Assembly: GCA_036170905.1 (NCBI GenBank) | Contig: JAVHQB010000093.1 | Coordinates: 123 to 64,122 of the forward strand | Origin: Minisyncoccota bacterium | GTDB taxonomy: Bacteria; Patescibacteriota; Minisyncoccia; UBA6257; JAVHQB01 | Direction: 5' to 3' | Length of the DNA stretch: 64,000 bases | In this document: positions 4,957 through 23,221 of the stretch, piece by piece | Position numbering within the stretch: the first letter of the stretch is position 1 | Layout: every line of letters begins with the position of its first letter | The notes under the pieces: generated by a model | Databases searched by the model: none | What the model saw: only the letters and a program-made list of their open reading frames with translations | What the model was told of the DNA's origin: nothing | Program-made: the position numbers and the translations under genes

Positions 4957-5042
4957 AAATTCCCCCTAACTATAGCCTAAAACAGTTAGTCTTTCTAAGA
5001 GTTATTCTTTGATATAAAGTTGTTTTCTTTAAGGTTGAATTA

Positions 5043-6125
5043 TTATAAAGCATTAATTACCAATTTATTTTCTTCTTTTAAGATTGTACAACATTCTTTG
5101 TGACAGGGCGCATTTTTTGATAAGCTTTGCCTAAGCTGTAAAAGTTCATTTTGCCATAGAGTCCTCAATGAAACATTTTTTATATTAAGCCCGGGCACGC
5201 CCAATTGATACTGCGGGCATTTCATTACTTCGCCATTTGAATCTATCGAGAGTATATAATAATTGACAAAACACCTGTTTAAATCTTCCTGATTAGATAT
5301 TTTAGATTTTTCATCGGTTCTATTTTGAGGGTTATCATTTTCTATATTCTCGAGTTCTCCCCAATTACCTTGATAACCCAACTTCTTTTCATTCTTTAGC
5401 ATGGAAAAGATGGATTTAAACTCTTTCATCTCTTCGATATTGAGTTGCAAATCTCCATAGTTTACTAACCCCATATTTAGTAATTTTAAAATATCTACTG
5501 ATTCTATATTCTTATAACTATTGGCAAATTTAACGAGTGAAGGAAGGCTTCTAAAATTGAGTTTGCTTATTACTACATTTAATATAATCTTTACCTTGCT
5601 ATCAATTTGCTGTAAAGTATCCAGGAATTCCACTATGTATTGAAAATACGGCTTTTGATTAATTGCTGGACGCATGGCGTGCTGAATAGAGGGATCAGCA
5701 GAATCAAGGCTGATTCGAATAATATCCCAACCGCAATCGGTCATAATTTTAGCTACTCCAGAATTCAAAAAACTGCCGTTAGTAGTCATCGTGCCGCAAA
5801 GCCCCAGGCGTTTAATCTCCTGTATAATAGCTATAATATCTTTTCTGCAGAAAGGCTCTCCCAAGTGACCGCCTAAATTTATATCTTTAACTTTAAATTC
5901 GCTAGCTTCTCTAAATAAACTGAACAAATCTTCGGTTGAAAGGTTACCGGACAAATCCGGAGAAACGATCTTCCCCCCAAGACAGTATAAACACCTGAGA
6001 TTACAGGTTTTTGTCAACATCAATGCAATAGTTTCAGGGCCAATCTCAGGATTCACTAAGCCAATTTTTACACGTTTGATTGTTTGCTTATCCATATTGT
6101 TTATAAACTTATCTTTTATTCTCAA
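5043..6125 (-). CDS. Radical SAM/SPASM-like enzyme
   Basis: LTKTCNLRCLYC motif, then LGGHLGEPF. The C-terminus reads RCFVN...KCPQ...APCHKECC. Confidence 0.7.
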   Translation of the reverse strand: MRIKDKFINNMDKQTIKRVKIGLVNPEIGPETIALMLTKTCNLRCLYCLGGKIVSPDLSGNLSTEDLFSLFREASEFKVKDINLGGHLGEPFCRKDIIAIIQEIKRLGLCGTMTTNGSFLNSGVAKIMTDCGWDIIRISLDSADPSIQHAMRPAINQKPYFQYIVEFLDTLQQIDSKVKIILNVVISKLNFRSLPSLVKFANSYKNIESVDILKLLNMGLVNYGDLQLNIEEMKEFKSIFSMLKNEKKLGYQGNWGELENIENDNPQNRTDEKSKISNQEDLNRCFVNYYILSIDSNGEVMKCPQYQLGVPGLNIKNVSLRTLWQNELLQLRQSLSKNAPCHKECCTILKEENKLVINAL

Positions 6126-7299: not shown

Positions 7300-7315
7300 A
7301 TTTTATACTCATATA

Positions 7316-8257
7316 TTATACAACTAGTCCCGCCAGACAGGGAGATTGACAATTTTCGACTCTTTTCATCTCATTCGCATATTCGCTACTGCTAAATACT
7401 TCTTCCAGTTTATATTTATGCAGGGGATATTCTAATTCTTTACCGCAGATCCAGATGTTTCCCCTTAAGTTGATATTAAAACTCTTCACCCCCATCTTGC
7501 ATTGGGTGTTTCTTCGCAGGGTATTAGTAAAATAATCCATGTATCGGTCTAATATTTCTAAGGGCCGAGTTAACTTAAGCGCCTGATTATTTGACAAATA
7601 CGAAAGTATCCCCTTAAGCGCATTTAACTCCCCTGCGTTAAGATTAAATTTATTTCTAAGGTAATAGATCTCATTATGAGGAATTACCGGTTGAATATCT
7701 AAAGGTACCTGAGGGTAATTCTTTTCAAGAAATTTAATAAAGTTCACGAAGTCGAAAAAATTCTCCGGCATAAGAACAGAGGTAAAATAAAAGGTCCAGC
7801 CATATTGCTTAAGAAGAGCTGCGGCTTCCATAACTTTCGAAAAAACGCCGTTACCTCTTATGCGGTCATTTTCCGCTTCCAAGCCATCCAGTGAGAGTAT
7901 AAATATGGTTTTTTCTTTACATTGGATGATATTTTCCAAGAATCCCCTGGTAAGTAAAGTAGCGTTGGTAATTATATTAACGGTTATACCCTTAGCTGCC
8001 ACTATTTTAACTAACTCGGCTAAATCTTCCGCTCTTAGCAAAGATTCGCCTCCACCGAAACCAATGCTCTGGACTTTGAATCTCGTGATATTCTCAATTA
8101 TAACCTTCCATTCATCCAGGGATAATTCGTGGCTTAAGTCGTGTGGATGAGTGGTAGTAGTGCACATAACACATTTTAAATTACATCTATCCAGCATAGC
8201 TATATAAAACTGCTGGAATTCAAATGAATCTAAATCCTTATTGTTTAATATTGTCAT
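7316..8257 (-). CDS. Radical SAM enzyme (twitch/SPASM-like)
   Basis: LDRCNLKCVMC motif, then GFGGGESLL. The C-terminus reads WICGKE...NCQSPCLAG. Confidence 0.7.
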   Translation of the reverse strand: MTILNNKDLDSFEFQQFYIAMLDRCNLKCVMCTTTTHPHDLSHELSLDEWKVIIENITRFKVQSIGFGGGESLLRAEDLAELVKIVAAKGITVNIITNATLLTRGFLENIIQCKEKTIFILSLDGLEAENDRIRGNGVFSKVMEAAALLKQYGWTFYFTSVLMPENFFDFVNFIKFLEKNYPQVPLDIQPVIPHNEIYYLRNKFNLNAGELNALKGILSYLSNNQALKLTRPLEILDRYMDYFTNTLRRNTQCKMGVKSFNINLRGNIWICGKELEYPLHKYKLEEVFSSSEYANEMKRVENCQSPCLAGLVV

Positions 8258-9503
8258 TTGCTAAACTCCCACTAATAGAGATAAGCATATTTTCTAATTT
8301 CTCTAACGTATTTGCAATATCGCTATCCGACTCTCCGGTATTTGAATTAAGGCCTTCTCTCATTAATTGCAAAAAAGAGTATTCTTCGTTACGAATAGCA
8401 ATTTTGGCATCCCGGGGCAAGTTTACTATTTCTGTCTCCAATTGTGCATGGATTAAACTAATATCGTCCGATTGAGAGCGTTCTGAACAAAATTGGGTGC
8501 AGCTTTTTTTACAATTCCTGATCATCTTCCTGATTTTACCGGTATCCTCTGCATACCATGCCTTTTTAAGGCTGTCTTTTTTAATATTCCCGAATGACTG
8601 GAAGCATACAAAACTCATATCTCCCTGCGGATTTACAAAAATCCTGTTGAATCCCGCGAAACATGTATTTTCAAACCCTTGCCCTCTAAAATGCTTAATA
8701 GTTTTTTCCGGCATGATATCTATATGCATAACACCTGAAAATTCTTCCCTCTTGGCAATTAATATGTCAAAAATTTGCTGCAGCCTGGGAATATCCTTTT
8801 CTTCAATCCAGAGTTCATTGTTTTCTAAAGGTGCAGATAAATCACCATTATTAACTAGGGGCTGGAAGGCTATATAACAACAATTCATTTTTCTTGCTAA
8901 ATCCGCCAAGGCAAGAAGTTCCTCCATGTTCTTCTTCATGATCACGCTTACCATTGCAATATCCAAGACCCTGTCTTCGCTGTTACGGCCATATTTTTCT
9001 TTATAGTAATTAAGATACTCGATGGCACACATCGCTTTCTCAAATATTCCCTCACCCCGGAAAAAATTATGCGTTTTGGGATTAGCCCCGTCGATAGAAA
9101 AACTTATATTCCTTAATCTTGACCTTACTATTTTTTCAGCGGTTTCTTTGTCAATAAAACCGCCGTTAGTATTAATTGTAGTGACGATCCCGGGACGGGC
9201 AGCATAATCGATTAACTCAAATATGTCTTTTCGCAAGAGCGCTTCGCCTCCGGTAAAATAAATCGTCTTTATACCCATAGATATGGCTTCATCAATAAAC
9301 CTTTTAATGTCTTTTGCGCTTGCTTCTTCCTGGAACCGCTGCTTCCATACATTACACATCTTACACTGAAGCTGACACCGGGAGGTAACCATAAGCTGTA
9401 GCATATCAGGCTCAACCATTGCTTTATTCAATAAACGGGAGAAATTAAAAAGGTAATCTCTCTTGTATTTATCGAAGATTTCTTTCATCTTATCTGCTGT
9501 CAC
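8238..9503 (-). CDS. Radical SAM/SPASM-domain enzyme
   Basis: TSRCQLQCKMC motif, then FTGGEALLRKDIF. The C-terminus reads TCFAGFNRIFVNPQGDMSFVCFQSFGNI...NCKKSCTQFC. It overlaps the downstream gene by 20 nt. Confidence 0.8.
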   Translation of the reverse strand: MTADKMKEIFDKYKRDYLFNFSRLLNKAMVEPDMLQLMVTSRCQLQCKMCNVWKQRFQEEASAKDIKRFIDEAISMGIKTIYFTGGEALLRKDIFELIDYAARPGIVTTINTNGGFIDKETAEKIVRSRLRNISFSIDGANPKTHNFFRGEGIFEKAMCAIEYLNYYKEKYGRNSEDRVLDIAMVSVIMKKNMEELLALADLARKMNCCYIAFQPLVNNGDLSAPLENNELWIEEKDIPRLQQIFDILIAKREEFSGVMHIDIMPEKTIKHFRGQGFENTCFAGFNRIFVNPQGDMSFVCFQSFGNIKKDSLKKAWYAEDTGKIRKMIRNCKKSCTQFCSERSQSDDISLIHAQLETEIVNLPRDAKIAIRNEEYSFLQLMREGLNSNTGESDSDIANTLEKLENMLISISGSLANDNIKQ

Positions 9504-9559
9504 TATGAACCCCCTATTTCTTAAAATAGCAATTGCCTTGCCGGATATAACCGGATTTA

Positions 9560-10924
9560 TTAAGAAATACCCCCCTTATAGACGCCTAAGGCCCTCGCAA
9601 GCCCAAATAGCATCCCCTTCCTTACCTCCCTGACCCATGGGCTATTTCTTCCTTTAATATACCACTCCGATTTATTATTATAGCGAATATTCAAAGATTC
9701 CTGCTCTCTCCACAGCCGCGATTTATGGGGGATGTAACAGTTGCTGACGCTTACAAATTCATCAATATATTTCCTGTTCTTGAATAAAAATACCATAGTC
9801 TCTATTATATCACTCCATCTTTCCGTAGGATAACCTACCATCCATAACGTATTTACCTTTATCCCGGAATCGTGAGTCCTCCGTAAGGCTTGAGAGATAT
9901 GCTTTTTTAGCGGCTTACCCATATGCGCCAGGACCCTGGCTGCTCCGCTTTCGATGCCGTATGTAAAATAAATTCCCCCTGCTTTTTTTACTTTATATAA
10001 AAATTCTTGCGACATTTCTACCCGCGCACGAGCCATCCCACCCCATTCAAAATTATTTTTTCCGGAGATTATCTTATCTGCCAGCTGCCCCAATTTGCCT
10101 AAATCCCCGTTAACCATTAAGTCGTTACATTTAAAACGCCTGCGGCCAAAGAGTGCGCTGTGTTTTATCATTTCCCCAAGGATATTATCAACGCTTCGCA
10201 TCCGATACCTTCCCCACATGGGCGCGTCGGTACAGAATGCGCAACTATAATTACATCCCCGACTGAAAATAATCGGAATTTCCGCCTTATTGGTATATCG
10301 CTCAAAATCAAATAATTTTAACGCAGGAAACGGAATGCTATCTACATCTAAAGGATTGGTGTCCCATCCGTTATCCCTAAAGCCTGCGCCTGTATAAATT
10401 AACGTTCCTTCTATAACTGCATCTCTCATGGATTCGCCACGTTCAATTTTTCCTGCTATCTTACTAATAATCTTTTCGCCTTCCCCGCGAACATAAACAT
10501 CAACATTATTATTTAACTCTCCGGTTTCCATGACCTCCGCACACCATGGCCCGCCAAAAACGATACAGACGTCCTTCGCTTTTTTCTTTAATGCATCCGC
10601 CAACAAATTAGCTAATATCCTCGAATGACTGTTAACGCTTAAACCGATAATTCTCGGATTACGTTCCAGAACGGCCTCTGTCCATTTTTCCAACAAATCG
10701 GGTACATTAAAATTCATACTTATTTTTTCTAAAGATGTCCAGTAATCGGAATTTTCCCAATCCCACAAAAATTGCTTATCTTTACTTTCTACGTATAATT
10801 GAGAATTGAAACAAAAAACAGAAACATCATATCCGTTATTTATTAACTGGCCGGCTATATAAGCTATACCCAAAGGCGGCATATCAACACCATAAAGAGG
10901 AGGAAAGACTAAGGCTATATTCAT
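9560..10924 (-). CDS. B12-binding-domain (class B) radical SAM enzyme, probably a methyltransferase or other C-H functionaliser
   Basis: The N-terminus (MNIALVFPPL...PPLGIAYIAG...IIGLS) has the Rossmann-like B12-binding layout. FSRGCNYSCAFC is the CxxxCxxC motif. Confidence 0.7.
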   Translation of the reverse strand: MNIALVFPPLYGVDMPPLGIAYIAGQLINNGYDVSVFCFNSQLYVESKDKQFLWDWENSDYWTSLEKISMNFNVPDLLEKWTEAVLERNPRIIGLSVNSHSRILANLLADALKKKAKDVCIVFGGPWCAEVMETGELNNNVDVYVRGEGEKIISKIAGKIERGESMRDAVIEGTLIYTGAGFRDNGWDTNPLDVDSIPFPALKLFDFERYTNKAEIPIIFSRGCNYSCAFCTDAPMWGRYRMRSVDNILGEMIKHSALFGRRRFKCNDLMVNGDLGKLGQLADKIISGKNNFEWGGMARARVEMSQEFLYKVKKAGGIYFTYGIESGAARVLAHMGKPLKKHISQALRRTHDSGIKVNTLWMVGYPTERWSDIIETMVFLFKNRKYIDEFVSVSNCYIPHKSRLWREQESLNIRYNNKSEWYIKGRNSPWVREVRKGMLFGLARALGVYKGGIS

Positions 10925-10932
10925 ATTTATTT

Positions 10933-11982
10933 TTAAAAATTATTTTTTATGATATTTTTTAAACTAGCGGATTCATCTCGGGCATGGCAATCCTGAAGAC
11001 AGTAATTACGGCATTTTTTTATGCCTATTCTTCTTTTTTTAGCCTTTTCAGAATACCAGATTTTTTTGACTGAAGATTCTTTCCTGATGTTGCCGATTTC
11101 TTCACCACACATCTGAATTACCCCGCCGGGAATTACTGCAAATCTGCGATAACCGGCAAAACAAACCCATTCTCCTTCGCAGATATTCCTCCTAAAATAT
11201 TTTTTGATTAAACGGAAGCTAGGGTAATTCAAACCATAACCTTGCTGCTGGAGAATGTTGATTTTATCTATCATCTGATCGAGCTTATTCAGGCGTTCTC
11301 CGGTAATCCATAAATTATCCTCACCTCCAGATGAATCTTGTTTGTACAGTTTGACGTTATCAAAAACTACGGAAGTTATATATAAGGCATTGATAGATAA
11401 ACTCCTGGCTAAAGAAAAATATTCCTCCAACTCATCAAGGTTATAGTTGGATAGGGTTAAAATCATTACCTTGATTAATTTCTTCGCATTCGGGCAACTG
11501 TTTAAATGCTTTATTCCCTGCATTATTTTATCAAAAGCCCCAGGCTGAGCCCTAATTTTATCATGTGTTGCCGCTTTTGATCCATCAACAGATATCGTAA
11601 TTATATCCAACCCCGACTGGATCAATTCTTTAGCTAAATCTTCCGTTATTAAAGTGCCGTTTGTTGTTAGTATAACCTTCATATCAGAAGCTTTAGCAAA
11701 TTTTATTACATCAAAGATTAATTCACTGATCAATGGTTCGCCGCCGCATAAATTAATCTCTTTTACTCCCCACTCTTTACATTGGCTGATCACACCCTTA
11801 ACCTCTTCTAAAGTCAGATCATCTTCCTTCTTGGCGTCTTTCCAGGCATTGCACATTTTACACCTAAGATTACATCTGCTGGTGAGTGAAATCTGCAGGG
11901 TATCCGGGGGAACTAGAGGATAATTAATTTTCCTCGATAGCCAAAAGCCTATATCCTTTTTTAATTTTACTGAGATATTCAT
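10933..11982 (-). CDS. Radical SAM/SPASM-domain enzyme
   Basis: TSRCNLRCKMC motif, then CGGEPLISELIF. The C-terminus reads VCFAGYRRFAVIPGGVIQMCGEEIGNI...CRNYCLQDC. Confidence 0.8.
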   Translation of the reverse strand: MNISVKLKKDIGFWLSRKINYPLVPPDTLQISLTSRCNLRCKMCNAWKDAKKEDDLTLEEVKGVISQCKEWGVKEINLCGGEPLISELIFDVIKFAKASDMKVILTTNGTLITEDLAKELIQSGLDIITISVDGSKAATHDKIRAQPGAFDKIMQGIKHLNSCPNAKKLIKVMILTLSNYNLDELEEYFSLARSLSINALYITSVVFDNVKLYKQDSSGGEDNLWITGERLNKLDQMIDKINILQQQGYGLNYPSFRLIKKYFRRNICEGEWVCFAGYRRFAVIPGGVIQMCGEEIGNIRKESSVKKIWYSEKAKKRRIGIKKCRNYCLQDCHARDESASLKNIIKNNF

Positions 11983-12027
11983 AATTTTGGCCTAAACGCA
12001 TACTTTACTTTAAACCATAACCGATAG

Positions 12028-13917
12028 CTAATCACAAAAGCAGGGTAAAAGACAAGGGTGTTTGCATCCCCTCACCCTGTCCCTGGCCTGCTCACTATCT
12101 TTAGATGCATATATTTCTTTTAAACTATTCTTACGAATATTACCATAACTTTCAAAACACGTAGTTACCTCTCCATTATTAGCGATAAGCATGGTTTTAG
12201 TCGCATAGAGACATTTTACGTCATTTTGGGATAAAGAGCCCCGAAAATATTTTTTTATAAGACTAAGGTTGCTTTCTGAATTACGCACAAGGGCAGGGTT
12301 ATTTCTTTTAAACTCCATAAGGTTATCAATTGTTTTGTCTAAAACAGCGAGCCTGTCCGGAGTAATCCAATATTTAGCGCCTTTTTTCCTCTCATTCATG
12401 GCCAGATTATTCGCAAGCAAAGGCTGGAATTGAATAGAATTTATATTTAACGATTTTAGAAAAATAGCCAGATCCAAAAGCTCTTCTAAATTTTCATTAA
12501 GAATTACTGATATAGAATTAAAGTTTATGCCTGGATATTCTTTTTTAAATTCGGAAAGCATCTTTAAGGCATTAGAAGTTTTATCAAAACATCCCTTGAC
12601 CCCCCTGATTTCATCATGAATTCCCGGGGTTAACGCATCAAGAGAAATGCTTAAAGAAAGGTATCCGCCTGCTAAATACGGAAGTAATCTTTTAATAAAA
12701 TTACCGTTCAATATAACCCCGTTAGTCAATACCCCGACATGATATTCCTTTTCTCGTACAAAATCCAGTATCTCAAAAATATCTTTTCGTATGAGAGGCT
12801 CGCCTCCGGATAAAGCAAAGTCCTTAACCTGCCAATCAAGCGCTTCATTTATAATCCTCCCTACTTCCTTTAAGGTATATTCTTTAACCGGCTTATCTTT
12901 TCTGATCTCGCAAATATTACACTGGAGATTACATCTATGGGATATATCTAAGATAATTAATTCCGGCTTAAGGAAATTTTTATCAAGTATTTTTTTTGTC
13001 CTGCCATACTCGAACGTATTGCCTATTAAGTAATTAATTTTATGTAATACAAAATAAATATAAACTTGGAATTTTTCATAAAAGCTCAACCGATTATGAC
13101 ATCGGATCAAGCGTTTGCCTAAAAGATAAGCAAAGCGCGGTATTTTAATAATATTTATAATTAATCCGGAAATAAAAACAACACTGTTTTTGGTCTTTAT
13201 TTCTTTTAACAAAGGATGATCCTGATGCATATATTGAACTAAATAATTTCCCCTGCCGTACATATATGCCTGCTTTAGAAAAGAAATCAGATCCGTATGA
13301 CAATCATGGAATACTTTTATGTCTTTCTTATAACTGAACCTGTTACCTTTCTTAAAAAGCCGCCAGAAAAAATCCAGATCTTCACCCGCAGGCAAAGGGA
13401 ATAATTCGTCAAACTCGCTGACAAGAGAGGCCCGCTTAAAAGATACATTACAGGTAGGGAAAAATATGGTTTCAGGTTTCCCGTTTATTTCTGTTTCTAT
13501 CGCCCCGTCGCTTAAGAATTGGCTAACCTGTGCCTTAATATTATGGCTGTCAACCTCAGTAAAACCTCCGATTGCTGCAATATGCTCCTCTTGGCTATGC
13601 GCCCGAACCATATTTTTGACCCAATCTTTATCTAGAACGCAATCACTATCCGTAAATCCAACTATCCCTGCCCGGGCATGTTTAATACCTAAGTTTCTGG
13701 CAGCAGCAGGGCCCCTATGGCTCTGGATAAAATACTTTAAATTTGGATTTATCTTAGAAAGCGCGCAAAGCATATCCTTGGTCCCATCAACCGAACCATC
13801 ATCTATAACGATTATCTCAAAAGCGTCTCCGGGATAACTCTGCACAAATAAAGAGTCCAGACAAAATTTAAGTTTAACCTTTCGATTATAAGTGGGAATT
13901 ATTACAGATATGTCCAT
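12028..13917 (-). CDS. Fusion protein: N-terminal GT2 (GT-A) glycosyltransferase domain joined to a C-terminal radical SAM/SPASM domain
   Basis: N-terminus MDISVIIPTYNR...IIVIDDGSVDGT...FTDSDC is GT2-like, with a DxD-type motif. The C-terminal half carries DISHRCNLQCNIC, LSGGEPLIRKDIF and SPASM cysteines (KCLYATK...TCFESYGNI...GCKHPCLLPCFCD). Confidence 0.75.
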   Translation of the reverse strand: MDISVIIPTYNRKVKLKFCLDSLFVQSYPGDAFEIIVIDDGSVDGTKDMLCALSKINPNLKYFIQSHRGPAAARNLGIKHARAGIVGFTDSDCVLDKDWVKNMVRAHSQEEHIAAIGGFTEVDSHNIKAQVSQFLSDGAIETEINGKPETIFFPTCNVSFKRASLVSEFDELFPLPAGEDLDFFWRLFKKGNRFSYKKDIKVFHDCHTDLISFLKQAYMYGRGNYLVQYMHQDHPLLKEIKTKNSVVFISGLIINIIKIPRFAYLLGKRLIRCHNRLSFYEKFQVYIYFVLHKINYLIGNTFEYGRTKKILDKNFLKPELIILDISHRCNLQCNICEIRKDKPVKEYTLKEVGRIINEALDWQVKDFALSGGEPLIRKDIFEILDFVREKEYHVGVLTNGVILNGNFIKRLLPYLAGGYLSLSISLDALTPGIHDEIRGVKGCFDKTSNALKMLSEFKKEYPGINFNSISVILNENLEELLDLAIFLKSLNINSIQFQPLLANNLAMNERKKGAKYWITPDRLAVLDKTIDNLMEFKRNNPALVRNSESNLSLIKKYFRGSLSQNDVKCLYATKTMLIANNGEVTTCFESYGNIRKNSLKEIYASKDSEQARDRVRGCKHPCLLPCFCD

Positions 13918-16632
13918 TTACTTACCGTGTATGTTTAGGATACCGGAAAAATATGGATACTTACCCGGGGAAAAGTTTGTTTTTAAAGAAGATGAATACT
14001 GTAAAACTCTACCACGATGATACCGGTCAGAATTTATTATTTTAAGACACCATTCTGGATTTAATTTTTGGAGAAATAAAGAAACTTCCGGTAGGTTATG
14101 CATAAGGTTCTCTTTCAGGCTGATAAGCTTGTCGTTTTGTTTGCCACACCATAGACAATCCCAATCATCATCAATATCATCCCTAAATTCCGGGAAATAA
14201 CCTTCATCCTTACCCACTAGCCATTGGGAGAACTTCTCAGAAAACATGATATTCGCCTGAAGACGATCTAGGTCAACCTCCTTCTCTACTTCTAAATTAA
14301 CCCTCCATTCAAACAATCCCGTATTCCCAACTACAATTTCCCACTCCTGGAATAGGGGCAAATCCAACCATTTACCGACAGCTTTAATTTTCCGGCTATC
14401 TTTGTAAACGATTTTCCAATGAGCAGATGAAAAAGAATCATACCAGCGGCCGTTGGAGCGCATTGAAGTATATAACGCAATATTCTTGGTAATCTCCTTT
14501 GCGTTTTTATAAAACTTCCCACTTCCTCTATTAAATACAAATCTGATAGCTTTATCTTCAATGATATTATCAGAATATTCGATGTTCATTAATTTATTCT
14601 TATCTAAAGAAAACTTGGCCTTAAAAACCTCATACTTACCGGGAGAGAATACAACCTTTGTTTCCGGCTCTACCCTTTCTAAGTGCAGGAGCCTTGCCTT
14701 ACCATATGAATTAGAATTAAAAACTTTTACAAAATTACCTAATTTCTCAGAAAAGAATAATGATAATGTCGGCAATTTCCCACTAGGATCATGTAATCCT
14801 ACCCGTCCTGTGGAAATACACCTTTTTAACAAGTCTACATCTACATCATTAAATGTGTCACTGAATTTCTCAGAGATAAATTCGCTAAAGAATAACTTAA
14901 AATCTTCAGAAAAAAAACATCTCAGGCGCTGCCGCTCGATAGCTATATTTTGGTTAACTTCCATATCGACATCCCAGGTAAAAGAATGGTCTTCGGATAT
15001 ATTAATCCGCCATATTTGAGAAATTCCAAGATCATTCCAGCTACCACGGGCAATCAATTTATTTTCTGCCACTTTTTCTAAGGACCAGGAAGCTGAATTT
15101 GAAGCAAACCAACTTTGCTTTATAAGAAATTCAGAATACATATGGCCAGCCTTAGTTAAAGCAATGTTATCAAATAATACAGTCAGCTTGCCATTATCAA
15201 AGACTAATTTCAACTTTCCGCTTGATATAATAAATTCCTTTTGCACCTTAGAGATATAATCATCGATATCATGGACATCAACAATTATTTTACTGGAAAA
15301 ACAGATCCGCCGGCTCGATTGGTTAATCTGCCCTCCGGAAAAGGGGATTATTTTATATTGCAGTATGCGGCCAGGATTAATATAATCAGAATTGAAGATG
15401 CCTGCATAGCCATGGTATCTTAAGCGTGCTTGCTCAAAAAGTAATGCCGGGAGCTTACCGGAAGAAGGATTCTGCGAATATACGCCAATACAAGCAGTTG
15501 AATTATTTTTAAGTGATACAGATTTCCAATACTTATCTTCCTCCTTTATGGCAGAAAACTCTCCTTGTTCTAAATCAGCAACCCACTTTTTATAACCATC
15601 AACCAGCGCAATATTAACACACACCTCAGGCAACTGTGTATCTTTTTCTAATTCAATTTCTATATCCCAGTTAATCTCATAATTGTCAGAAACCCCTATC
15701 CTCCAAATCTGAGCCATTGCAAGATGGTAAAACTTGCCAGTTGCTACAAGTTTACCATTGGACTCCTCAACATCCCATTCTGCCTGGGTAGAACTATACC
15801 ATGCATCAGCTACTCGAAATACCGTATAAACCCCGGATGAAAGCGTAATTAATTTACCTTCCCAATTCAATAGTAACTTACCATTATTAAATACCAGATT
15901 GAACTGCTTTCTTTCAATAATAGCTATCCCTTTTGGACTACCGACTGTCTGTGAATAAAAAGATAATGCCTTGGTCGTCTCTTCATCTTTAATCAGCATT
16001 CCCTGCTTTAAAAATATTGTCCTTGCGCAGAGTTTTTGCAACATAGTCATATCATGAGTAACAATAATAACGGTCTTGCCTTTTTGTTTTATCTCGAATA
16101 TTTCCTTAATGCATTTTCTCTGGAAATACTCATCTCCCACAGCCAGCGTATCATCTACAAGAAAAATATCGGAGTCCATATGCACTGCTATGGCAAATGC
16201 CAAACGCACAAACATGCCTTGAGAATAGCATTTTACCGGAGCATCGATAAACTTGCCGATTTCAGCAAAATCAATAATCTGCTGAAACTTTTCTTTAGCC
16301 TGATCTGCACGCAAACCAAAGAGTTCAAACTGCAGAGAAATGTTCTCCCGGCCGGTAAGCTCTGTCTGAAAGCCTGCACCCAACTCCAAAAGCCCGGAGA
16401 CGCTGCCTGAAACTGCTATTTCACCGCGATCAGGCTTTAACATGCCCGCAATTAATTTTAAAAGGGTAGACTTACCTGACCCGTTTTCACCGATAATTCC
16501 CAACGACTCTCCTTTTTCCATAGAGAAATTGATTCCTCGTAAAGCCCAGAAATTATCCCAGGAGGCCTTACCGTTAATCATAAACTTAATCCGGTACATC
16601 TCCCAGGCATCTTTAAATTCAATTATAGGCAT
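13918..16632 (-). CDS. wzt: Wzt/TagH-type ABC transporter ATPase with a ~650-aa C-terminal extension built from three repeated modules (putative glycan-binding domains)
   Basis: Walker A is GENGSGKST. The signature is YSQGMFVRLAFA. Walker B is IFLVDDTLAVGDE. The C-terminal region contains three related ~90-aa segments (e.g. ...KLIARGSWNDLGISQIWRINISEDHSFTWDVDMEV). Confidence 0.8.
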   Translation of the reverse strand: MPIIEFKDAWEMYRIKFMINGKASWDNFWALRGINFSMEKGESLGIIGENGSGKSTLLKLIAGMLKPDRGEIAVSGSVSGLLELGAGFQTELTGRENISLQFELFGLRADQAKEKFQQIIDFAEIGKFIDAPVKCYSQGMFVRLAFAIAVHMDSDIFLVDDTLAVGDEYFQRKCIKEIFEIKQKGKTVIIVTHDMTMLQKLCARTIFLKQGMLIKDEETTKALSFYSQTVGSPKGIAIIERKQFNLVFNNGKLLLNWEGKLITLSSGVYTVFRVADAWYSSTQAEWDVEESNGKLVATGKFYHLAMAQIWRIGVSDNYEINWDIEIELEKDTQLPEVCVNIALVDGYKKWVADLEQGEFSAIKEEDKYWKSVSLKNNSTACIGVYSQNPSSGKLPALLFEQARLRYHGYAGIFNSDYINPGRILQYKIIPFSGGQINQSSRRICFSSKIIVDVHDIDDYISKVQKEFIISSGKLKLVFDNGKLTVLFDNIALTKAGHMYSEFLIKQSWFASNSASWSLEKVAENKLIARGSWNDLGISQIWRINISEDHSFTWDVDMEVNQNIAIERQRLRCFFSEDFKLFFSEFISEKFSDTFNDVDVDLLKRCISTGRVGLHDPSGKLPTLSLFFSEKLGNFVKVFNSNSYGKARLLHLERVEPETKVVFSPGKYEVFKAKFSLDKNKLMNIEYSDNIIEDKAIRFVFNRGSGKFYKNAKEITKNIALYTSMRSNGRWYDSFSSAHWKIVYKDSRKIKAVGKWLDLPLFQEWEIVVGNTGLFEWRVNLEVEKEVDLDRLQANIMFSEKFSQWLVGKDEGYFPEFRDDIDDDWDCLWCGKQNDKLISLKENLMHNLPEVSLFLQKLNPEWCLKIINSDRYHRGRVLQYSSSLKTNFSPGKYPYFSGILNIHGK

Positions 16633-16633
16633 A

Positions 16634-17425
16634 TTAAATACGCTTTAATGCGCTCGCTTCAAGCCGGATTGACACCAATAACCCAATAAACAAACTAGAG
16701 AAAGTCCAGCCGATAACTCCCAAAAATGTTGCCAGATCGGGCATTTTGGCCCCAAAGATTATATCCCGATAGCAAAGAATGAACGTCGACATAGGATTAA
16801 AATTAAAAACCCATCTGAATTTCACAGGGACCATTTCAATAGAATAGAACACAGGTGTAACCCAAAACCAAAACATAAACAGAATTCCCATCAGGTGTTC
16901 TAGGTCGCGAAAAAGAATATTGACTACGCTAAGTAACAAAGCAATTCCGCAGGTGAAAAAATAAGTCAATAAAAATAGCACTAGCAACCAAGGGGCCAGG
17001 AGAAGAATCTTAGGATTGTGGAAAACAAAGATTGGATAAACGATACACCAGCTCATAAGAAAATTCATAAAATAAGATAGCACCGAACTTAAAGGCAGTA
17101 TTTCTTTTGGTAAACTAAATTGATGCAGAACGCTTTTTTGAGCTAATAAAGAAGGGGTAGCTTCGGATAAGGCTCCACAAAAAAACATCCACGGCAGGAT
17201 ACCTGTAAGAACAAACAGAGAAAAATCCTTTACTTCAGTTTTAAAAACAGCGGTAAATACAAAAGTTATTACCAGCATCATTAAAAGAGGATTTATTATC
17301 ACCCAAAAAAAGCCTAAAATAGAACCGGCATATTTAGCCTTAAGTTGTTTCCCTGATATGCTCCATAAAGAACGCCGATAGGAATATATTTTCCGAATTT
17401 TTTCTATAATCAAGCTTAGGGACAT
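16634..17425 (-). CDS. wzm: ABC-2 type polysaccharide/teichoic-acid exporter permease (Wzm/TagG-like)
   Basis: 263 aa with six predicted transmembrane helices and an ABC-2 layout (SILGFFWVIINPLL...). It sits directly upstream of the Wzt ATPase with a 1-nt gap. Confidence 0.75.
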   Translation of the reverse strand: MSLSLIIEKIRKIYSYRRSLWSISGKQLKAKYAGSILGFFWVIINPLLMMLVITFVFTAVFKTEVKDFSLFVLTGILPWMFFCGALSEATPSLLAQKSVLHQFSLPKEILPLSSVLSYFMNFLMSWCIVYPIFVFHNPKILLLAPWLLVLFLLTYFFTCGIALLLSVVNILFRDLEHLMGILFMFWFWVTPVFYSIEMVPVKFRWVFNFNPMSTFILCYRDIIFGAKMPDLATFLGVIGWTFSSLFIGLLVSIRLEASALKRI

Positions 17426-18717
17426 TTTATTTTCTCGGCTACCCTTTGGCCATCAAGTATAGCATCTTCCATAGACATATACTGCCAGTTTCCGTAACGG
17501 CCGCAGGCAATTATATTATTACGCAGTAAAAATTCTTTTATTGTTTTAGTTGCCTGCGAATAATGCTGATCATAAATAGGATAACCGTATTTTATATCAT
17601 TGGTGTCTGAAACTAACACTTTGTTTTTTTTATTCAAGATCCCGATTCTGTTAAGATCATTTAAAATCCGCTTAACAATCTTTCCTCTGGAAATTGGCTT
17701 ACTTTTTGAATATGCAACCTCCGCATATAAAGAACTCCTACCCTTAGGAGCAATAGTATTGGAAAAATTATGGAAGAATCCAGCCCTAAAAAATATAGTT
17801 TCTTGATGCGGAAAATACACCCAATGTTTACCGTCTCGGTAGCTTCCCTCTACGCCAAGATTCAAATTAAAAATTGAATTCCAGCGCAGTTTTTTGAAAC
17901 TGCTAAGAATTTTATCAGGTAACGGCTTGATTATTCTTATCAATTCAGGTAAAGGTATTGTTGAAATTAAGATATCGAATCTTTTCTTACCCGCGCCTAT
18001 AATAGTTATCTCCTTTTTTTCAAGATCAATTTCACTTATGCAACAATTCTTGTAAACATCGCCAATCTGTTTTTCAAATGCCTGAGGAAGTTGTCCTATT
18101 CCTCCTTTTCTGGGATACCAAAAGATAGCATTATAACCAAAACCATCCCTGCTCTTGCCAAAGAACCCGCTAGCTATATCTACTAGGCTGAGCTGGGGAA
18201 TAAATTTATCAGTCCAGGCGCAAGTCATTTGGCTCAAAGGAACTGTCCAAAATTTCTTATTATAAGGAATCATAAAATGCCTGGCTATACCTTTGCCAAA
18301 GGTAGTATTTATCCATTTTAGAAAATTTACCTGGCTTTTACTGGCCCAAGAACTGCTAGCCTGAATAAATTCCAATAAACATTCCCTGGCTATTGGCTTA
18401 GGTAAGGCATAGAGATTAGCCTGAAAGGGATAGCGGCTAAAAATACCGAAATTACTGATCCAGGCGCTTCTTTCATGACGTACCAAATTCCCCTTTAATA
18501 GTTTTCTCACCAGCCTCAGCGTATAACTGTTGCGAAAATGCAAAAGGTGGCCGTCATAATCAAAAATAAAACCATTGATTTGCTTAGAGCGACACAGACC
18601 GCCTACTGTATTTTCTTTTTCAAATACAGTAGCCCCTATCCCTCTTTTCTTAAGATGCCAGGCAGTACTTAAACCTGCAAGGCCTGCCCCTAAAATAACA
18701 ATCTTCTTTTTAGTCAT
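17416..18717 (-). CDS. FAD/NAD(P)-binding flavoprotein of the UDP-galactopyranose mutase / amine-oxidase superfamily
   Basis: N-terminal dinucleotide fold IVILGAGLAGLSTAWHL...FEKENTVGGL. The C-terminus GRYGNWQYMSMEDAILDGQRVAEKI resembles the UGM C-terminal GR.G.Y.Y.MD motif. Confidence 0.5.
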   Translation of the reverse strand: MTKKKIVILGAGLAGLSTAWHLKKRGIGATVFEKENTVGGLCRSKQINGFIFDYDGHLLHFRNSYTLRLVRKLLKGNLVRHERSAWISNFGIFSRYPFQANLYALPKPIARECLLEFIQASSSWASKSQVNFLKWINTTFGKGIARHFMIPYNKKFWTVPLSQMTCAWTDKFIPQLSLVDIASGFFGKSRDGFGYNAIFWYPRKGGIGQLPQAFEKQIGDVYKNCCISEIDLEKKEITIIGAGKKRFDILISTIPLPELIRIIKPLPDKILSSFKKLRWNSIFNLNLGVEGSYRDGKHWVYFPHQETIFFRAGFFHNFSNTIAPKGRSSLYAEVAYSKSKPISRGKIVKRILNDLNRIGILNKKNKVLVSDTNDIKYGYPIYDQHYSQATKTIKEFLLRNNIIACGRYGNWQYMSMEDAILDGQRVAEKIKCP

Positions 18718-19693
18718 TTGTTTCTATTTTTACCAACCTCCAGAATATACTTATACTAAATAAGAAAACAGTTGTAATAATACCCGCTGCGAATAGATTA
18801 TTTACCCTGGTCAGGACAACACCACAGCTAGCAAAAATAGAGCATAATAAATACATAATCAAAATTGTTTTGGCTGGCGAAAAACCCAAGGTACCGATTT
18901 TTAATGCAAGATGGTCTCTGCTTTTCTTGAAAGGCGGCCTTCTTTTAATTACCCTGAAGATAACTAGCAATATGGTATCAATAATCGGCAAACCCAGGAT
19001 CATTACCGGACTAAGCAGGGCAAAAGCATTATTAAGAGACGCGTAATGCGTAATTAGGGCGATGGAAGAAATGAGCAAACCCAAGAAATGGCTGCCGGAG
19101 TTACCCAGATAAGCCCTAGCCGGAGGAAGGTTAAAAATTAGAAATCCAGCGCTGCCTGCGCACAAAATAAGACTAAGAATCTGTACATTTAAATCTGCGC
19201 TCAAAAAACCTATCAGCAGGAATGCGCTACTTATAATCAAAGCCGTCCCTGCAGCTAAACCATCCATAATATCCAGCAGATTAAAGGCATTGGTCATACC
19301 TAAAATCCAAAAAAAAGTAATTACAGCATTACCCCAAAAACCAAGATACATAATATCTGTCCTTATTCCAAATAAAATTAATAAAACCGCGCAAAATGAT
19401 TGCGCCAGGAATTTCTGCGCTACCGACAATTCTCTTAAATCGTCAATTACGCCGAAAAACAAAACGAGCAGACAAACACCTGTTACTGCCAATACCTTAA
19501 CTAGAGCAAGATCGAATGTAAAAACACCTAAACCCGAAGAAAAAATAAAGGCCAGCCCTATGCCTAATCCCCCTACCAAAGGAATATTCTTGGTTTGAAG
19601 CATTTTGTATCTTAAAGAAATTTTTGTTAGTAAGAATGTAAAAAACGCGCTAGAGATCAGGGCGCTAGTAAAAATAATCAAATATTTAAGCAT
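18710..19693 (-). CDS. Polyprenyl-phosphate N-acetylhexosamine-1-phosphate transferase (MraY/WecA/WbpL family); the initiating glycosyl-phosphate transferase
   Basis: About 10 transmembrane helices. GVIDDL is a DD motif. NAFNLLDIMDGLAAG is the NxxNxxDGxDGL signature. Confidence 0.8.
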   Translation of the reverse strand: MLKYLIIFTSALISSAFFTFLLTKISLRYKMLQTKNIPLVGGLGIGLAFIFSSGLGVFTFDLALVKVLAVTGVCLLVLFFGVIDDLRELSVAQKFLAQSFCAVLLILFGIRTDIMYLGFWGNAVITFFWILGMTNAFNLLDIMDGLAAGTALIISSAFLLIGFLSADLNVQILSLILCAGSAGFLIFNLPPARAYLGNSGSHFLGLLISSIALITHYASLNNAFALLSPVMILGLPIIDTILLVIFRVIKRRPPFKKSRDHLALKIGTLGFSPAKTILIMYLLCSIFASCGVVLTRVNNLFAAGIITTVFLFSISIFWRLVKIETND

Positions 19694-20846
19694 TTTGGCC
19701 CCCTTGCAATAAATTAAAATATATTTCTTCGGTATGCTTAAGCATGCTACTTAATAAAAACTCTTCCGCATCTATTTTTTCCCTGGATAACTTTGAGAAT
19801 TCATATCTCTCTGGAGCATTGCTTAATAATTCCCCTACCCGATTCTGCATAGATTGTATATCACGCGTCTTAACCAAACAACCTGTTTTCCCGTTTACAA
19901 CAACCTCCCCGATGCCGCCGGTATCAGTAGCCACCAACGGAACTCCTGCAGCCATTGCTTCCAAGACTACTATCGGTAATCCTTCCCACAATGAAGTCAG
20001 CACAAAAATATCCAGGCAAGATAAAATCAAAGGTATATCATTATGCCAACCGGTTAAAATAACCTGCCCTTTTAAATTAAGTTTCTTTATCAGGGTACAA
20101 ACCTTCTGGCGTAACAAACCATCGCCAACCAGGATAAATTTAGCATCAGGAAAGTCCTTTTTAATTGCACCGGCTAATTTTATAAAATCCAAAGGAGATT
20201 TCTGGGGCTTAAAACAAGCGACCATACCCACCACTAAATCAAGATCGCTTAATCCCAGAGATTTCCTGGCTATAGAGCGTTTTTCCCTGCTCTTAAACTC
20301 ATTACAATTTATACTATATCTAATCAAGACATACTGACTTTTTTTACCAACCGAATTATTTAACCCCTTATCTTTATCGTACCTGGAAACTACGATTATT
20401 TTGCTTGTAAAAGTCGCGCAGACCTTTTCCAAAAACAGATAAAAATAATAAACAATCCTAGGTTGATAATCATGAAAACTCCAGCCGTGAACAGTATGGA
20501 TAATAACTGGTATTTTCGCAAATTTTGCAGCAAAACGTCCTAAAATCCCTGCCTTAGAACTATGCGTATGAACAATCTGTATTTTATTTTTTCTAATGAA
20601 ACTATACACTTCAACTAAAGCCAAGACATCTTTAAAAGGGTTTATCGAACGCTCTAAAAATCTTGACCTATGCAAAGTTAGCTTATCTATAGAGACTGCT
20701 TCATTGATTAATAAACCGTCTTTGGCAGTAAATAAAAAAATATTGTATTTTTCTTTATCCGAGCTGCTAATCAAGCTTAGTAATTGTTTCTGAGCGCCCC
20801 CCAATTCCAGCTTAGTAATAAGATAAAGAAGGTTAATTTTAGGCAT
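19686..20846 (-). CDS. GT4-family (GT-B) glycosyltransferase
   Basis: C-terminus SLWEGLPIVVLEAMAAGVPLVATDTGGIGEVV is the EX7E-type GT4 motif. Confidence 0.8.
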   Translation of the reverse strand: MPKINLLYLITKLELGGAQKQLLSLISSSDKEKYNIFLFTAKDGLLINEAVSIDKLTLHRSRFLERSINPFKDVLALVEVYSFIRKNKIQIVHTHSSKAGILGRFAAKFAKIPVIIHTVHGWSFHDYQPRIVYYFYLFLEKVCATFTSKIIVVSRYDKDKGLNNSVGKKSQYVLIRYSINCNEFKSREKRSIARKSLGLSDLDLVVGMVACFKPQKSPLDFIKLAGAIKKDFPDAKFILVGDGLLRQKVCTLIKKLNLKGQVILTGWHNDIPLILSCLDIFVLTSLWEGLPIVVLEAMAAGVPLVATDTGGIGEVVVNGKTGCLVKTRDIQSMQNRVGELLSNAPERYEFSKLSREKIDAEEFLLSSMLKHTEEIYFNLLQGGQNA

Positions 20847-21121: not shown

Positions 21122-23221
21122 TCAATTACTAATAGCTCTATTAATTTGTTGTTCTCCATATTCCCAGCATTGCGCTAAATTGCGCTTTTGGTGTTTTTTA
21201 ATCTCAATACAGGATAAACTAAAAGCGGGAAAAGTGTGTGCAAAAGATGTTTTGGTATTTTTTAATTTTAGTCGTATTCCGGTAAAATAAGGTTGGCTGG
21301 TTTTATTTATCACCATAATAATGATATCGCCATTATTATTAGAGGCATAAACATTGAGCTTTTCCGGTAAAGTAGTTTTTGCGTCTAACAAGAAACCCTG
21401 AAAATGCTTACTGTATAAACCAAGAGGATAATATAAGGGTGTCAAGTTATCCAAGTCATCCAGAAGGGCGGTATATTGATCGGATGAATTTAAGACGAAT
21501 TGCATAAAATAATTAAGCTGGTACTTAGCCATAATTCCGTATAAATCAGCTAAATAGAGGACTTTGATTAAGGGGTCATATTCCACCATTGATTCAGCCT
21601 CAATATTAAATTCTGTCAATGCTAATTCCGTCCCCGCATAATTATTCTCGATTAACTTCTTAAGCCTGGGCAAGATTTCAGCAATAAAACCAAAAGGCAG
21701 ATGGTAATCGTATTTATTGCTGTAACCGGCATTCCACCAGCTTGGGGTAGAGCTAAGAATCGTAGCAATAGCTTGCCGATGTTTCCCGGTTAAGTGATCA
21801 ACAAAGGAAGGAAAATAATGAAAGCTTAAGACGTCAAGAATCCTTATGCTTTGGGGATTTTCCTTTTGATTATTTTGAAAAGTATTGCATTTTTGCAAGA
21901 AATCACCTATGCCGGTTAACTGCATATCTTCCAGGCAAAAAGACGGGGCAAAAATCTTGATTTTTAAATTCGGGTTGATTTCATTCTGAGTCTTTTTCAA
22001 AGCAACGGAGATCTTCTTAAATAAGTTAAAATATTCTTCCGTTGAACAGGGAGTTTTTCTGGCGTCAAAGTGAACCTTATGCCAAATAAATGGCTCGTTG
22101 CCTATTTCGAAAAATTTGACATTATACTTTTTTGCCTGATTAAGATACCGCAAAAAATCTGCGGCGTCTTGCTCACTTATACATTGAGTAAATTTTCCTG
22201 CATTTTTCCCTTCCGGGGCATAACCTAAAGCATTAATCTGAATTAATGGCTCTGCCCCGATACGCCGGCAATAGGCAATAAATTCATCTAAATTTGTCAT
22301 GGTAATCAATCGATTGTTTCCGGGAAAAGTATATTTTCCATTACGCCAATTATACCTATCCATAAACGGTCCGCCTGCCCGTAAAATCTTTAATTTCAAC
22401 GCAGCTACCTTCTTTTCACTAGGTAAATTCAACCAAACTCCCCAATTCGCTCCAAAAAGATACGGGGAAACTTTCTGTTTATTTGGTAGGGAGTTATCAA
22501 TGATAATTTCAGCCTGGACTTGTTTAGGGGAGTATCCCTCCAGATCTAATAAGTAGGATCCGGGAGGACTACTGCGCATCTGAGCAAGATCCATAGAACC
22601 AGCAAGATTATCCTGTGAAAGCTTGGCCTCAAACAACATAATCCTACCCCACTGGTTATCTCTCCCTTTGGCATGCAACCCAAAGGACTTAACCTTATTC
22701 CATTCCAGGGATTGGCTGTAGCCTGGATTGCGCGGCTGCCAATCTGAAGCTATTTTAAAATCGGAAAAGGGCAGATAAATTTTTTGCCTTTTGCCTGTTA
22801 ATAAGAATCGGCTCATTAATGGCTTAGAGCTTCCTAAATTCTGGTCTTCAACAAAAAAATAAAAATAGATTTCTTTACCAGATTCGCCTTGAATATCAAG
22901 GGTAATCCCTTTAAACCCGCTGAAATCGGCGATTTTAACCAAAGGAACAAAAAAATCAATCTCCGGCCAAAGCCACGCCTTGGTTGCTTTAAGTTGGTAA
23001 ATAAATTCTCTTGGACGGTTATCTTCTTTGAATTTATTCACCCAGCCACGTGATGCCCCAGGCCAGCCTGAGTCGGTAGTTACCTGCCAATCATTGTTTT
23101 TTGGATCTAAAAGAGATAGCTCGCCTGCCAAAACAATATCGTAACACCTACCCCATATTGTTAAAAAAAATAATGAAGTAGAAATCTTTAATAAAAGCCT
23201 TTTGCTACAGGGCTTAATCAT
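21122..23221 (-). CDS. Secreted glycoside hydrolase, clan GH-A (beta/alpha)8 barrel, with an N-terminal beta-rich domain; family not resolved
   Basis: N-terminal signal peptide. FFEIGNEPF is an NEP catalytic acid/base-type motif. 699 aa. Confidence 0.45.
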   Translation of the reverse strand: MIKPCSKRLLLKISTSLFFLTIWGRCYDIVLAGELSLLDPKNNDWQVTTDSGWPGASRGWVNKFKEDNRPREFIYQLKATKAWLWPEIDFFVPLVKIADFSGFKGITLDIQGESGKEIYFYFFVEDQNLGSSKPLMSRFLLTGKRQKIYLPFSDFKIASDWQPRNPGYSQSLEWNKVKSFGLHAKGRDNQWGRIMLFEAKLSQDNLAGSMDLAQMRSSPPGSYLLDLEGYSPKQVQAEIIIDNSLPNKQKVSPYLFGANWGVWLNLPSEKKVAALKLKILRAGGPFMDRYNWRNGKYTFPGNNRLITMTNLDEFIAYCRRIGAEPLIQINALGYAPEGKNAGKFTQCISEQDAADFLRYLNQAKKYNVKFFEIGNEPFIWHKVHFDARKTPCSTEEYFNLFKKISVALKKTQNEINPNLKIKIFAPSFCLEDMQLTGIGDFLQKCNTFQNNQKENPQSIRILDVLSFHYFPSFVDHLTGKHRQAIATILSSTPSWWNAGYSNKYDYHLPFGFIAEILPRLKKLIENNYAGTELALTEFNIEAESMVEYDPLIKVLYLADLYGIMAKYQLNYFMQFVLNSSDQYTALLDDLDNLTPLYYPLGLYSKHFQGFLLDAKTTLPEKLNVYASNNNGDIIIMVINKTSQPYFTGIRLKLKNTKTSFAHTFPAFSLSCIEIKKHQKRNLAQCWEYGEQQINRAISN

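Follow-up and report, generated by a model that had tools for sequence, protein, structure and literature searches.

What determines which polymer leaves the cell when the Wzt subunit of a glycan exporter lacks the domain that normally reads the end of the chain? Substrate selection in ABC-transporter-dependent glycan export is, to our knowledge, understood via one domain family, the cap-reading jelly-roll carbohydrate-binding domain (CBD) of Wzt. At the locus described here the corresponding position, directly after the nucleotide-binding domain (NBD), is occupied instead by three copies of a different module. With moderate confidence we propose that these three modules, predicted to be beta-supersandwiches, replace the cap-binding domain with a multivalent polymer-recognition array that is coupled to export.

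The wzt gene and its immediate surroundings

The gene lies in a 64-kb stretch of DNA, referred to below as the window. The features that concern us, all on the minus strand, are as follows:

17416..19693, minus strand: conserved upstream pair, an FAD amine-oxidase-family gene and a PF00953 polyprenyl-phosphate glycosyl-1-phosphate transferase gene (Pfam, NCBIfam)
16634..17425, minus strand: wzm, 263-aa ABC-2 permease (Pfam ABC2_membrane), its stop codon 1 nt before the wzt start codon
13918..16632, minus strand: wzt, 904-aa ABC-transporter ATPase, NBD plus three predicted supersandwich modules, stop codon 13918-13920
15934..16632, minus strand: NBD, residues 1-233 (phmmer against the PDB, Foldseek)
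15235..15933, minus strand: module R1, residues 234-466, predicted beta-supersandwich plus linker helix 456-465 (BLASTP self-comparison, hmmsearch, full-length model)
14569..15234, minus strand: module R2, residues 467-688 (BLASTP, hhalign, hmmsearch, AF2 model, Foldseek)
13921..14568, minus strand: module R3, residues 689-904, the terminal module (BLASTP, hhalign, hmmsearch, conservation)
12028..13917, minus strand: GT2 - radical SAM - SPASM fusion gene, its ATG abutting the wzt stop codon (Pfam)

The interval singled out in the initial annotation, 13921-15915 on the minus strand, comprises residues 240-904 of the 904-aa open reading frame (ORF). The product matches Pfam ABC_tran over residues 31-163 (E 4.8e-21), and its best NCBIfam matches, TagH and galactan Wzt, cover residues ~14-250 and fall below the curated equivalog cut-offs. 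The closest solved relatives found by phmmer in the PDB are the A. aeolicus Wzt structures 6amx, 8dku and 7k2t (E ~5e-62), in alignments that span residues 14-240 of the query only; and Foldseek superposes the full-length model on the NBD-only chains 6m96 and 6amx over 225-230 columns, with 44-46% identity and rmsd 4.4-5.1 Å. The similarity to the A. aeolicus Wzt NBD and the adjoining permease gene both bear out the original assignment as a Wzt ABC ATPase, and on sequence evidence the product is Wzt, the ATPase subunit of an exporter of the Wzm-Wzt type for lipid-linked polysaccharides. All residues outside the NBD belong to an extension that is taken up wholly by R1-R3.

The same arrangement recurs in related loci, where the conserved synteny consists of Wzm, then Wzt with a variable number of modules, then many radical-SAM genes. 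A wzm gene immediately upstream of wzt is also found in loci L001-L005 and L025; the upstream pair, whose FAD amine-oxidase-family member shows weak similarity to UDP-galactopyranose mutase, has the same order in L002 and L003; and in L002, too, wzt is followed by a gene of the GT2-radical SAM type. The glycan biosynthesis genes around wzt are of the GT1, GT2, PF00953 and GT-C types.

An anciently triplicated module

Self-comparison of the protein by BLASTP aligned R1 with R2 (E 1e-22), R1 with R3 (E 2e-15) and R2 with R3 (E 1e-15), at pairwise identities of 27-29% over 188-196 columns. When family profiles of the three modules, built from 32 orthologues each, were compared with hhalign, probabilities of 99.8-99.9% were obtained over 194-204 columns (E 1e-30 to 1e-32), and hmmsearch placed the three envelopes at residues 240-468, 471-699 and 694-902. 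The full-length model has the strands of R1 within residues 236-451, followed by the helix at 456-465. The internal triplication of the C-terminal extension proposed at the outset is thus confirmed by all three methods, and the motif then described does recur at three places, near residues 278-328, 508-559 and 730-782. The number of copies stands, but the repeat unit is ~215-230 aa long rather than ~90 aa, since the shorter segment covers no more than the N-terminal portion of each unit, where conservation is highest. A DNA-level repeat search returned short chance matches only, which argues for an ancient triplication and rules out a recent duplication or a misassembly.

Full-length homologues numbering 32, each 893-912 aa long, keep the three-module architecture, and their extensions are 41-100% identical; across them 32 columns are invariant in R3 and 30 in R1. 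R3 represents the best-conserved module type, and for this last module a consensus was drawn from 156 relatives. Family-wide, the conserved aromatic and polar positions are T, W..S..A.W, Q.W, N-S/T-D and R, and they are kept whatever the partner domain; in R2 numbering they include T25, W40, S43, W48, Q71, W73, N171, D173 and R179.

Relation to the canonical Wzt domain and predicted fold

The initial annotation suggested that the repeats could be a threefold form of the Wzt carbohydrate-binding domain, which Pfam lists as PF14524; here profile and profile-profile comparisons disagree with it, and the predicted fold is of another class. PF14524 found no match on the 904-aa Wzt at E <= 1 and none on 39 modules at E <= 10, whereas, of eight canonical Wzt proteins whose NBDs are equally similar, four were compared with the profile and all four matched it with E 1e-12 to 1e-30. 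Comparison by hhalign of the module profiles with an alignment of 8 canonical CBDs gave probabilities of 0.2-4.4% over at most 22 columns, and there was no Wzt-CBD structure in the top 50 Foldseek matches of the module. The modelled module has ~215 aa and ~18 strands, as against a jelly roll of ~150 aa with a C-terminal strand-exchange dimer. Judged by its sequence profiles, the module is outside the PF14524 Wzt_C family.

An AF2 model of R2 was obtained with pLDDT 87.7 and pTM 0.84; its core has 17 strands, or 19 if two from the start of R3 are counted; the full-length Wzt model has pTM 0.54, at which the geometry between modules is not confidently predicted. A Foldseek search of the PDB with the module model returned 58 matches at E <= 1e-3. 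The 50 that were listed consist mainly of galactose mutarotases, YeaD, glycoside hydrolases that contain a supersandwich (alpha-galactosidase, alpha-N-acetylgalactosaminidase, GH38, GH2, GH97 and GH63) and the P1 domain of YidC, the supersandwich neighbours having E 4e-6 to 1e-3, TM 0.5-0.64 and identities of 8-12%. The model predicts an ~18-strand, two-sheet beta-supersandwich of ~215 aa like that of galactose mutarotase, so that the suggestion of a carbohydrate-associated fold gains support. No Pfam or NCBIfam family covers the module, and we know of no earlier case of a supersandwich in the context of an ABC ATPase or a radical-SAM enzyme. In glycoside hydrolases the supersandwich domain is often structural.

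Distribution, copy number and fusion partners

An exhaustive search of representatives placed 641 representative clusters in the module family, and all of the named members are from Omnitrophota. The number of copies in Wzt runs from 1 to ~9; as a rule an R1-like module opens the array and an R3-like one closes it, with a variable number in between. The R3 alignment used in searching for related loci reaches only three-module Omnitrophota relatives. One single-module relative, P0160, is a complete ORF whose sole module is of the R3 type; a second candidate, P0143, proved to be truncated at a contig end, and its cluster mate has 913 aa.

The module is also found outside Wzt. It is fused to radical-SAM proteins of the B12-rSAM and rSAM/SPASM kinds in P0105, P0167, P0091 and the gene after wzt in L003; P0152, which has three cluster members, unites an NBD, two modules and an rSAM/SPASM region in a continuous ORF; and P0056, P0098, P0149 and P0127 join it to a GT-C glycosyltransferase (PMT_2). 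The GT-C fusions have the same module order as Wzt, R1-like first and R3-like last. Crude hydropathy analysis gives them 4-12 transmembrane segments, from which orientation cannot be reliably read; the soluble C-terminal domains of GT-C enzymes are usually periplasmic.

Radical-SAM genes are abundant around these transporters. The window holds ~18 of them, together with 5 GT-C genes, and within 10 kb there are 4-8 in most related loci with enough flanking sequence, and 1-2 in L005, L006 and L003. Together with the fusions, these neighbours support the link to radical-SAM chemistry drawn in the initial annotation. In related loci with incomplete flanks the counts show no simple proportionality to module number: 2 genes with one module, 5-6 with two, 2-8 with three (4-8 in three-module loci whose downstream flank extends for ~10 kb or more), 4 domains with five and 7 with ~8-9.

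A proposed polymer-recognition array and its alternatives

Because relatives fuse it to radical-SAM enzymes and to membrane glycosyltransferases, the module probably holds a sugar polymer. We infer that the ligand is a glycan and that its binding gates export. In the mechanism proposed, the array would capture, in the cytoplasm, the completed, radical-SAM-tailored glycan on its polyprenol carrier, would raise the local concentration of that glycan at the transporter and, by analogy with the canonical Wzt domain, would license its export, here multivalently. On the radical-SAM and GT-C enzymes of the pathway the same module would serve as a portable domain for targeting substrate. Since most radical-SAM genes of the window carry no module detectable by hmmsearch, it would not be needed by every tailoring enzyme.

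Several observations touch on the nature of the ligand. The module sits exactly where canonical Wzt has its carbohydrate-binding domain; its fusions to polymer-acting enzymes follow the logic of an enzyme plus a binding module; and the conserved aromatic and polar positions persist across partner domains. On the other side, a supersandwich is no proof of sugar binding, as the same fold in YidC P1 illustrates, and the structural similarities are moderate at the TM scores and identities given above.

The modules might bind proteins and not glycan, holding radical-SAM enzymes and glycosyltransferases in a complex at the cytoplasmic face of the transporter, with module-bearing enzymes docking through module-module contacts; we consider this unlikely, but it has real points in its favour. 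YidC P1 has a supersandwich fold without a motif for sugar binding and may bind proteins, strand exchange joins canonical Wzt domains into dimers, the modules occur on the transporter and on some enzymes alike, and in P0152 NBD, modules and radical-SAM enzyme are covalently joined in one protein. However, hmmsearch found the module on none of the ~18 radical-SAM genes, the 5 GT-C genes or the other genes of the window, so that module-module docking cannot recruit the enzymes encoded there; and if the modules on GT-C enzymes are, as we assume, periplasmic, they could not share a protein partner in the cytoplasm with those on Wzt.

A second alternative, which we regard as distinctly improbable, is that only the terminal R3-type module reads a ligand and that the internal modules of R1 and R2 type act as rigid spacers: their number would fix how far the cap site lies from the channel entrance and hence how long a chain is accepted for export. 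The variable count of modules between a usually R1-like first and a usually R3-like last member, the retention of that order in GT-C fusions, the superior conservation of R3 and its occurrence as the sole module of P0160 are all in keeping with such a device. Against it, the internal modules retain the family-wide polar and aromatic positions, which as a pattern of sequence conservation argues for a retained ligand site; R1, with 30 invariant columns, comes close to R3, with 32; and the geometry between modules is predicted with low confidence (pTM 0.54). A more elaborate form of the idea is a comparably long shot: the array would act on the transporter as a molecular ruler or assembly line, and the export ATPase would encode both chain length and tailoring in its number of domains. 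The terminal R3-type module would then read a cap installed by radical-SAM chemistry, the number of internal modules (0 to ~8) would set the length that a lipid-anchored chain needs in order to reach it, and the internal modules would offer the chain to one radical-SAM tailoring enzyme after another.

It is very improbable that the modules are themselves enzymes, for instance mutarotase-, epimerase- or lyase-like ones, acting on the polymer at the transporter. The Foldseek matches listed do include galactose mutarotase and hexose-6-phosphate mutarotases, but no His or Glu is invariant or nearly so across 39 aligned modules, neither Pfam Aldose_epim nor any other enzyme family matches the modules at E <= 10, and a catalytic domain does not typically occur as diverged tandem copies, of which there are three here and as many as ~9 in relatives. 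Finally, that the modules are canonical PF14524 domains diverged past easy recognition is scarcely credible and largely refuted by the comparisons already described, for although the array sits at the same place after the NBD and Foldseek aligns the full model with full-length A. aeolicus Wzt over 352-378 columns, past the NBD, those alignments carry rmsd 11-16 Å.

A whole phylum-level lineage, Omnitrophota, uses an unrelated and unannotated module in place of the Wzt jelly-roll CBD. Should the module bind the polymer, it would constitute a new family of carbohydrate-binding module and a second, multivalent way of coupling polymer completion to export, and its profile would provide a handle for finding surface-glycan clusters unusually rich in radical-SAM genes.

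Comparison with known systems

The array shares with the canonical Wzt CBDs of E. coli O9a, R. terrigena and A. aeolicus its position directly after the NBD hinge of a Wzm-Wzt exporter, its all-beta, cytoplasmic nature and, by analogy, its proposed role of recognising the finished polymer and licensing export. It differs in having no detectable sequence or profile homology to them, in its predicted ~215-aa supersandwich in place of a ~150-aa strand-swapped jelly-roll dimer, in its tandem copies (three here, 1 to ~9 in relatives) and in its occurrence on radical-SAM and GT-C enzymes. With the galactose-mutarotase-like domains of galactose mutarotase, YeaD and the accessory regions of glycoside hydrolases it has in common the modelled ~18-strand, two-sheet architecture, but the identity is 8-12%, no Pfam or NCBIfam family describes it and the conserved His/Glu of mutarotases is lacking.

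Of the PDB matches listed, YidC P1 (3bs6) has the best mutual coverage (TMq 0.61, TMt 0.56, rmsd 4.5 Å) and is likewise a supersandwich attached to a membrane transport machine; it is, however, periplasmic and single-copy, and has no sequence relationship to the module. Literature searches on Wzt with supersandwich or mutarotase domains, on radical SAM in Omnitrophota and on radical-SAM-rich Wzm/Wzt clusters turned up no description of the module. The tandem carbohydrate-binding modules (CBMs) of CAZymes and the periplasmic CBMs of the GT-C enzyme AftD exemplify a portable, repeatable binding module that is borne by varied catalytic partners acting on one polymer. The present module may be likened to them, by analogy only, in being attached to different partners, but here it is an ABC ATPase and radical-SAM enzymes that carry it.

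The wzt gene and its threefold extension

The interval 13921-15915 on the minus strand, singled out by the initial annotation, lies within an ORF of 904 aa (13918-16632) and encodes its residues 240-904; in this protein a nucleotide-binding domain (NBD, residues 1-233) is followed by modules R1 (234-466), R2 (467-688) and R3 (689-904). Pfam ABC_tran matches residues 31-163, and the top NCBIfam models, TagH and galactan Wzt, each score under their equivalog cut-offs. By sequence, the closest solved relative of the NBD is A. aeolicus Wzt (E ~5e-62), the alignment being limited to query 14-240 even with the 404-aa chains that contain a carbohydrate-binding domain (CBD). The same protein also ranks first in Foldseek for a full-length model (pLDDT 78, pTM 0.54), its NBD-only chains giving 44-46% identity and an rmsd of 4.4-5.1 Å. 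The gene lies in the following order:

Upstream of wzt/wzm: FAD oxidoreductase, PF00953 initiating transferase, GT1 gene
Upstream, stop 1 nt before the wzt start codon: Wzm, ABC-2 permease, 263 aa
13918-16632, minus strand: wzt
Downstream, ATG abutting the wzt stop codon: GT2-radical SAM-SPASM fusion gene

All three occurrences of the motif first reported were located in the extension, and the units that carry them are homologous, although each spans about 215-230 aa and not the ~90 aa originally proposed. Pairwise BLASTP of the thirds of the extension gave E = 1e-22, 2e-15 and 1e-15, with 27-29% identity over 188-196 columns, and hhalign comparison of profiles of each third (32 orthologues apiece) gave probabilities of 99.8-99.9% (E 1e-30 to 1e-32, ~200 columns). 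A module HMM produced exactly three full-length matches in Wzt, tiling residues 240-902, and no further match among the other ORFs of the window. A nucleotide-level repeat was searched for in the extension and none was found. The similarity of the thirds, the HMM tiling and the lack of a nucleotide repeat together confirm the triplication, the whole extension consisting of three units.

Relation to known families and predicted fold

Neither Pfam nor NCBIfam gave a match to residues 240-904, nor did sequence and profile searches of the PDB with the extension. As a positive control, eight canonical Wzt proteins encoded on plasmids (408-472 aa) were retrieved: their NBDs match the NBD profile of the window Wzt at E 1e-72 to 1e-83, and PF14524 (Wzt_C) is present in all four of those scanned. 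When the module profiles were compared by hhalign with an alignment of the C-terminal domains of these eight proteins, probabilities were only 0.2-4.4% over at most 22 columns; the properties of the known CBD family are described in PMC9445017. Given these values, obtained alongside the positive control, and the absence of a Pfam match, the module is, by sequence comparison, no detectable member of the known CBD family; the proposal of a triplicated known Wzt C-terminal domain is contradicted by the lack of a PF14524 match and by probabilities no higher than 4.4%.

AlphaFold2 modelling of R2 with an alignment of 39 modules gave an all-beta structure (pLDDT 87.7, pTM 0.84) with 17 strands in the core and 19 in the construct, the final two being the start of R3. 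Foldseek returned 58 PDB matches at E <= 1e-3, and the majority of the best 50 are beta-supersandwich, galactose-mutarotase-like domains, with query-normalised TM-scores up to 0.64 and 8-12% sequence identity; no Wzt CBD structure is among these 50. They include galactose mutarotase, YeaD and yeast hexose-6-phosphate mutarotase; alpha-galactosidases/alpha-N-acetylgalactosaminidases, GH38, GH2, GH97, GH63 and oligoglucan phosphorylase chains; and the YidC P1 domain. Minor capsid proteins of PBCV-1, a giant virus, account for the best match and several more (8h2i chains, TM ~0.5). The predicted supersandwich fold is carbohydrate-associated yet not diagnostic of sugar binding, since YidC P1, as described in the YidC paper, resembles galactose mutarotase without having a sugar-binding motif, and may bind proteins.

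Distribution and polarity of the module

An exhaustive profile search over 1.84 billion representatives placed 641 clusters in the module family at E <= 1e-3, and 302 at E <= 1e-30. Among the best 150 matches and 36 close homologues, two, three (most commonly), four or five copies follow the Wzt NBD. The extremes are a complete 465-aa ORF with one module (P0160) and a complete 2244-aa ORF with eight detectable modules and a ~290-aa gap, suggesting about nine. Typing with R1, R2 and R3 profiles showed that arrays typically open with an R1-like module and close with an R3-like one, while the count of internal modules differs between Wzt relatives. R3 is the best-conserved type, with 32 invariant columns, and is the type carried by P0160. 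The module also occurs on radical-SAM enzymes of B12-binding and SPASM types, and GT-C glycosyltransferases of the PMT_2/GT39 type carry two to four C-terminal copies, the last of which is usually R3-like. Every organism-named family member is a Candidatus Omnitrophota MAG, and a search of GTDB species representatives with the R3 alignment found 18 loci, all from Omnitrophota or PVC-labelled MAGs.

The surrounding cluster and its relatives

The window is occupied by a glycan-type cluster of >60 kb, nearly all on the minus strand, with an exceptional density of radical-SAM genes; six are SPASM-type, six B12-binding and one the GT2 fusion. There are also five GT-C genes. The main features are:

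282-13917, 31499-44818, 54380-55939, 61456-62961, all minus strand: about 18 radical-SAM ORFs in 64 kb
21122-23221: 699-aa protein with weak GH44/EpsB-like similarity, just upstream of GT genes
24987-26174, 27089-28114, 38146-39333, 39311-40405: four Peptidase_U32-family genes
45044-47616, plus strand (the sole such island): polysaccharide deacetylase (with DUF3473) and carbamoyltransferase
48394-50007, 50041-51654: tandem GT-C (PMT_2) genes, 537 aa each

Fe-S hydroxylases that work independently of O2 belong to the U32 family, and the four genes here may therefore encode further anaerobic tailoring enzymes, not proteases. The genes of the plus-strand island point to a polymer that is N-deacetylated and carbamoylated, and the 699-aa protein may act in the same pathway as a hydrolase that processes the glycan. 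The PMT_2 pair (99.3% nucleotide identity, flanks unrelated) is either a very recent tandem duplication or a collapsed/expanded assembly repeat. At 3911-4965, a radical-SAM gene is possibly split or frameshifted, ORFs 3914-4618 and 4552-4965 both matching radical-SAM cores.

The order GT1, PF00953 transferase, FAD oxidoreductase, Wzm, Wzt, radical-SAM genes recurs with Wzt of two, three and five modules. Most related loci with sufficient flank have four to eight radical-SAM genes within 10 kb; L005, L006 and L003 have one or two. In L003, which encodes a five-module relative, a 1447-aa protein has three tandem rSAM/SPASM units (16349-20692), and the B12-rSAM gene immediately after wzt (14083-16359) has a module copy at its N-terminus. 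One protein family (P0152) combines NBD, two modules and rSAM/SPASM within a single continuous ORF, of 1217 aa at 2036-5689 of L004; it was found in three separate samples, and five further radical-SAM genes lie downstream in L004.

Possible role of the array

In the reading with the best support, the array would act as a non-canonical polymer-recognition device, because it sits where the canonical CBD would be, its predicted fold is carbohydrate-associated, aromatic and polar positions stay conserved whatever partner is attached, and it is fused in CBM-like manner to enzymes whose common denominator is the polymer. It is plausible, as the initial annotation guessed, that the feature recognised would be a radical-SAM-dependent modification, given the tight association of the array with radical-SAM enzymes, both genomic and covalent.

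That the modules instead form a protein-docking scaffold seems rather unlikely, and is weakened by the window having no other module-bearing gene. Less probable again is a spacer or ruler with R3 alone as reader, which would fit the polarity and copy-number variation but not the conservation of internal modules. A catalytic role is very improbable: conserved acid/base residues were looked for among the modules and none were found. Least credible is a diverged canonical CBD, essentially refuted by the PF14524 and hhalign results.

A Wzt with a C-terminal extension for substrate recognition is of an already known kind. Four features appear undescribed, and literature searches turned up no account of any: a supersandwich module family outside Pfam and NCBIfam; its tandem, variable-copy arrangement; its occurrence on radical-SAM and GT-C enzymes as well as on Wzt; and its restriction, among organism-named members, to Omnitrophota.
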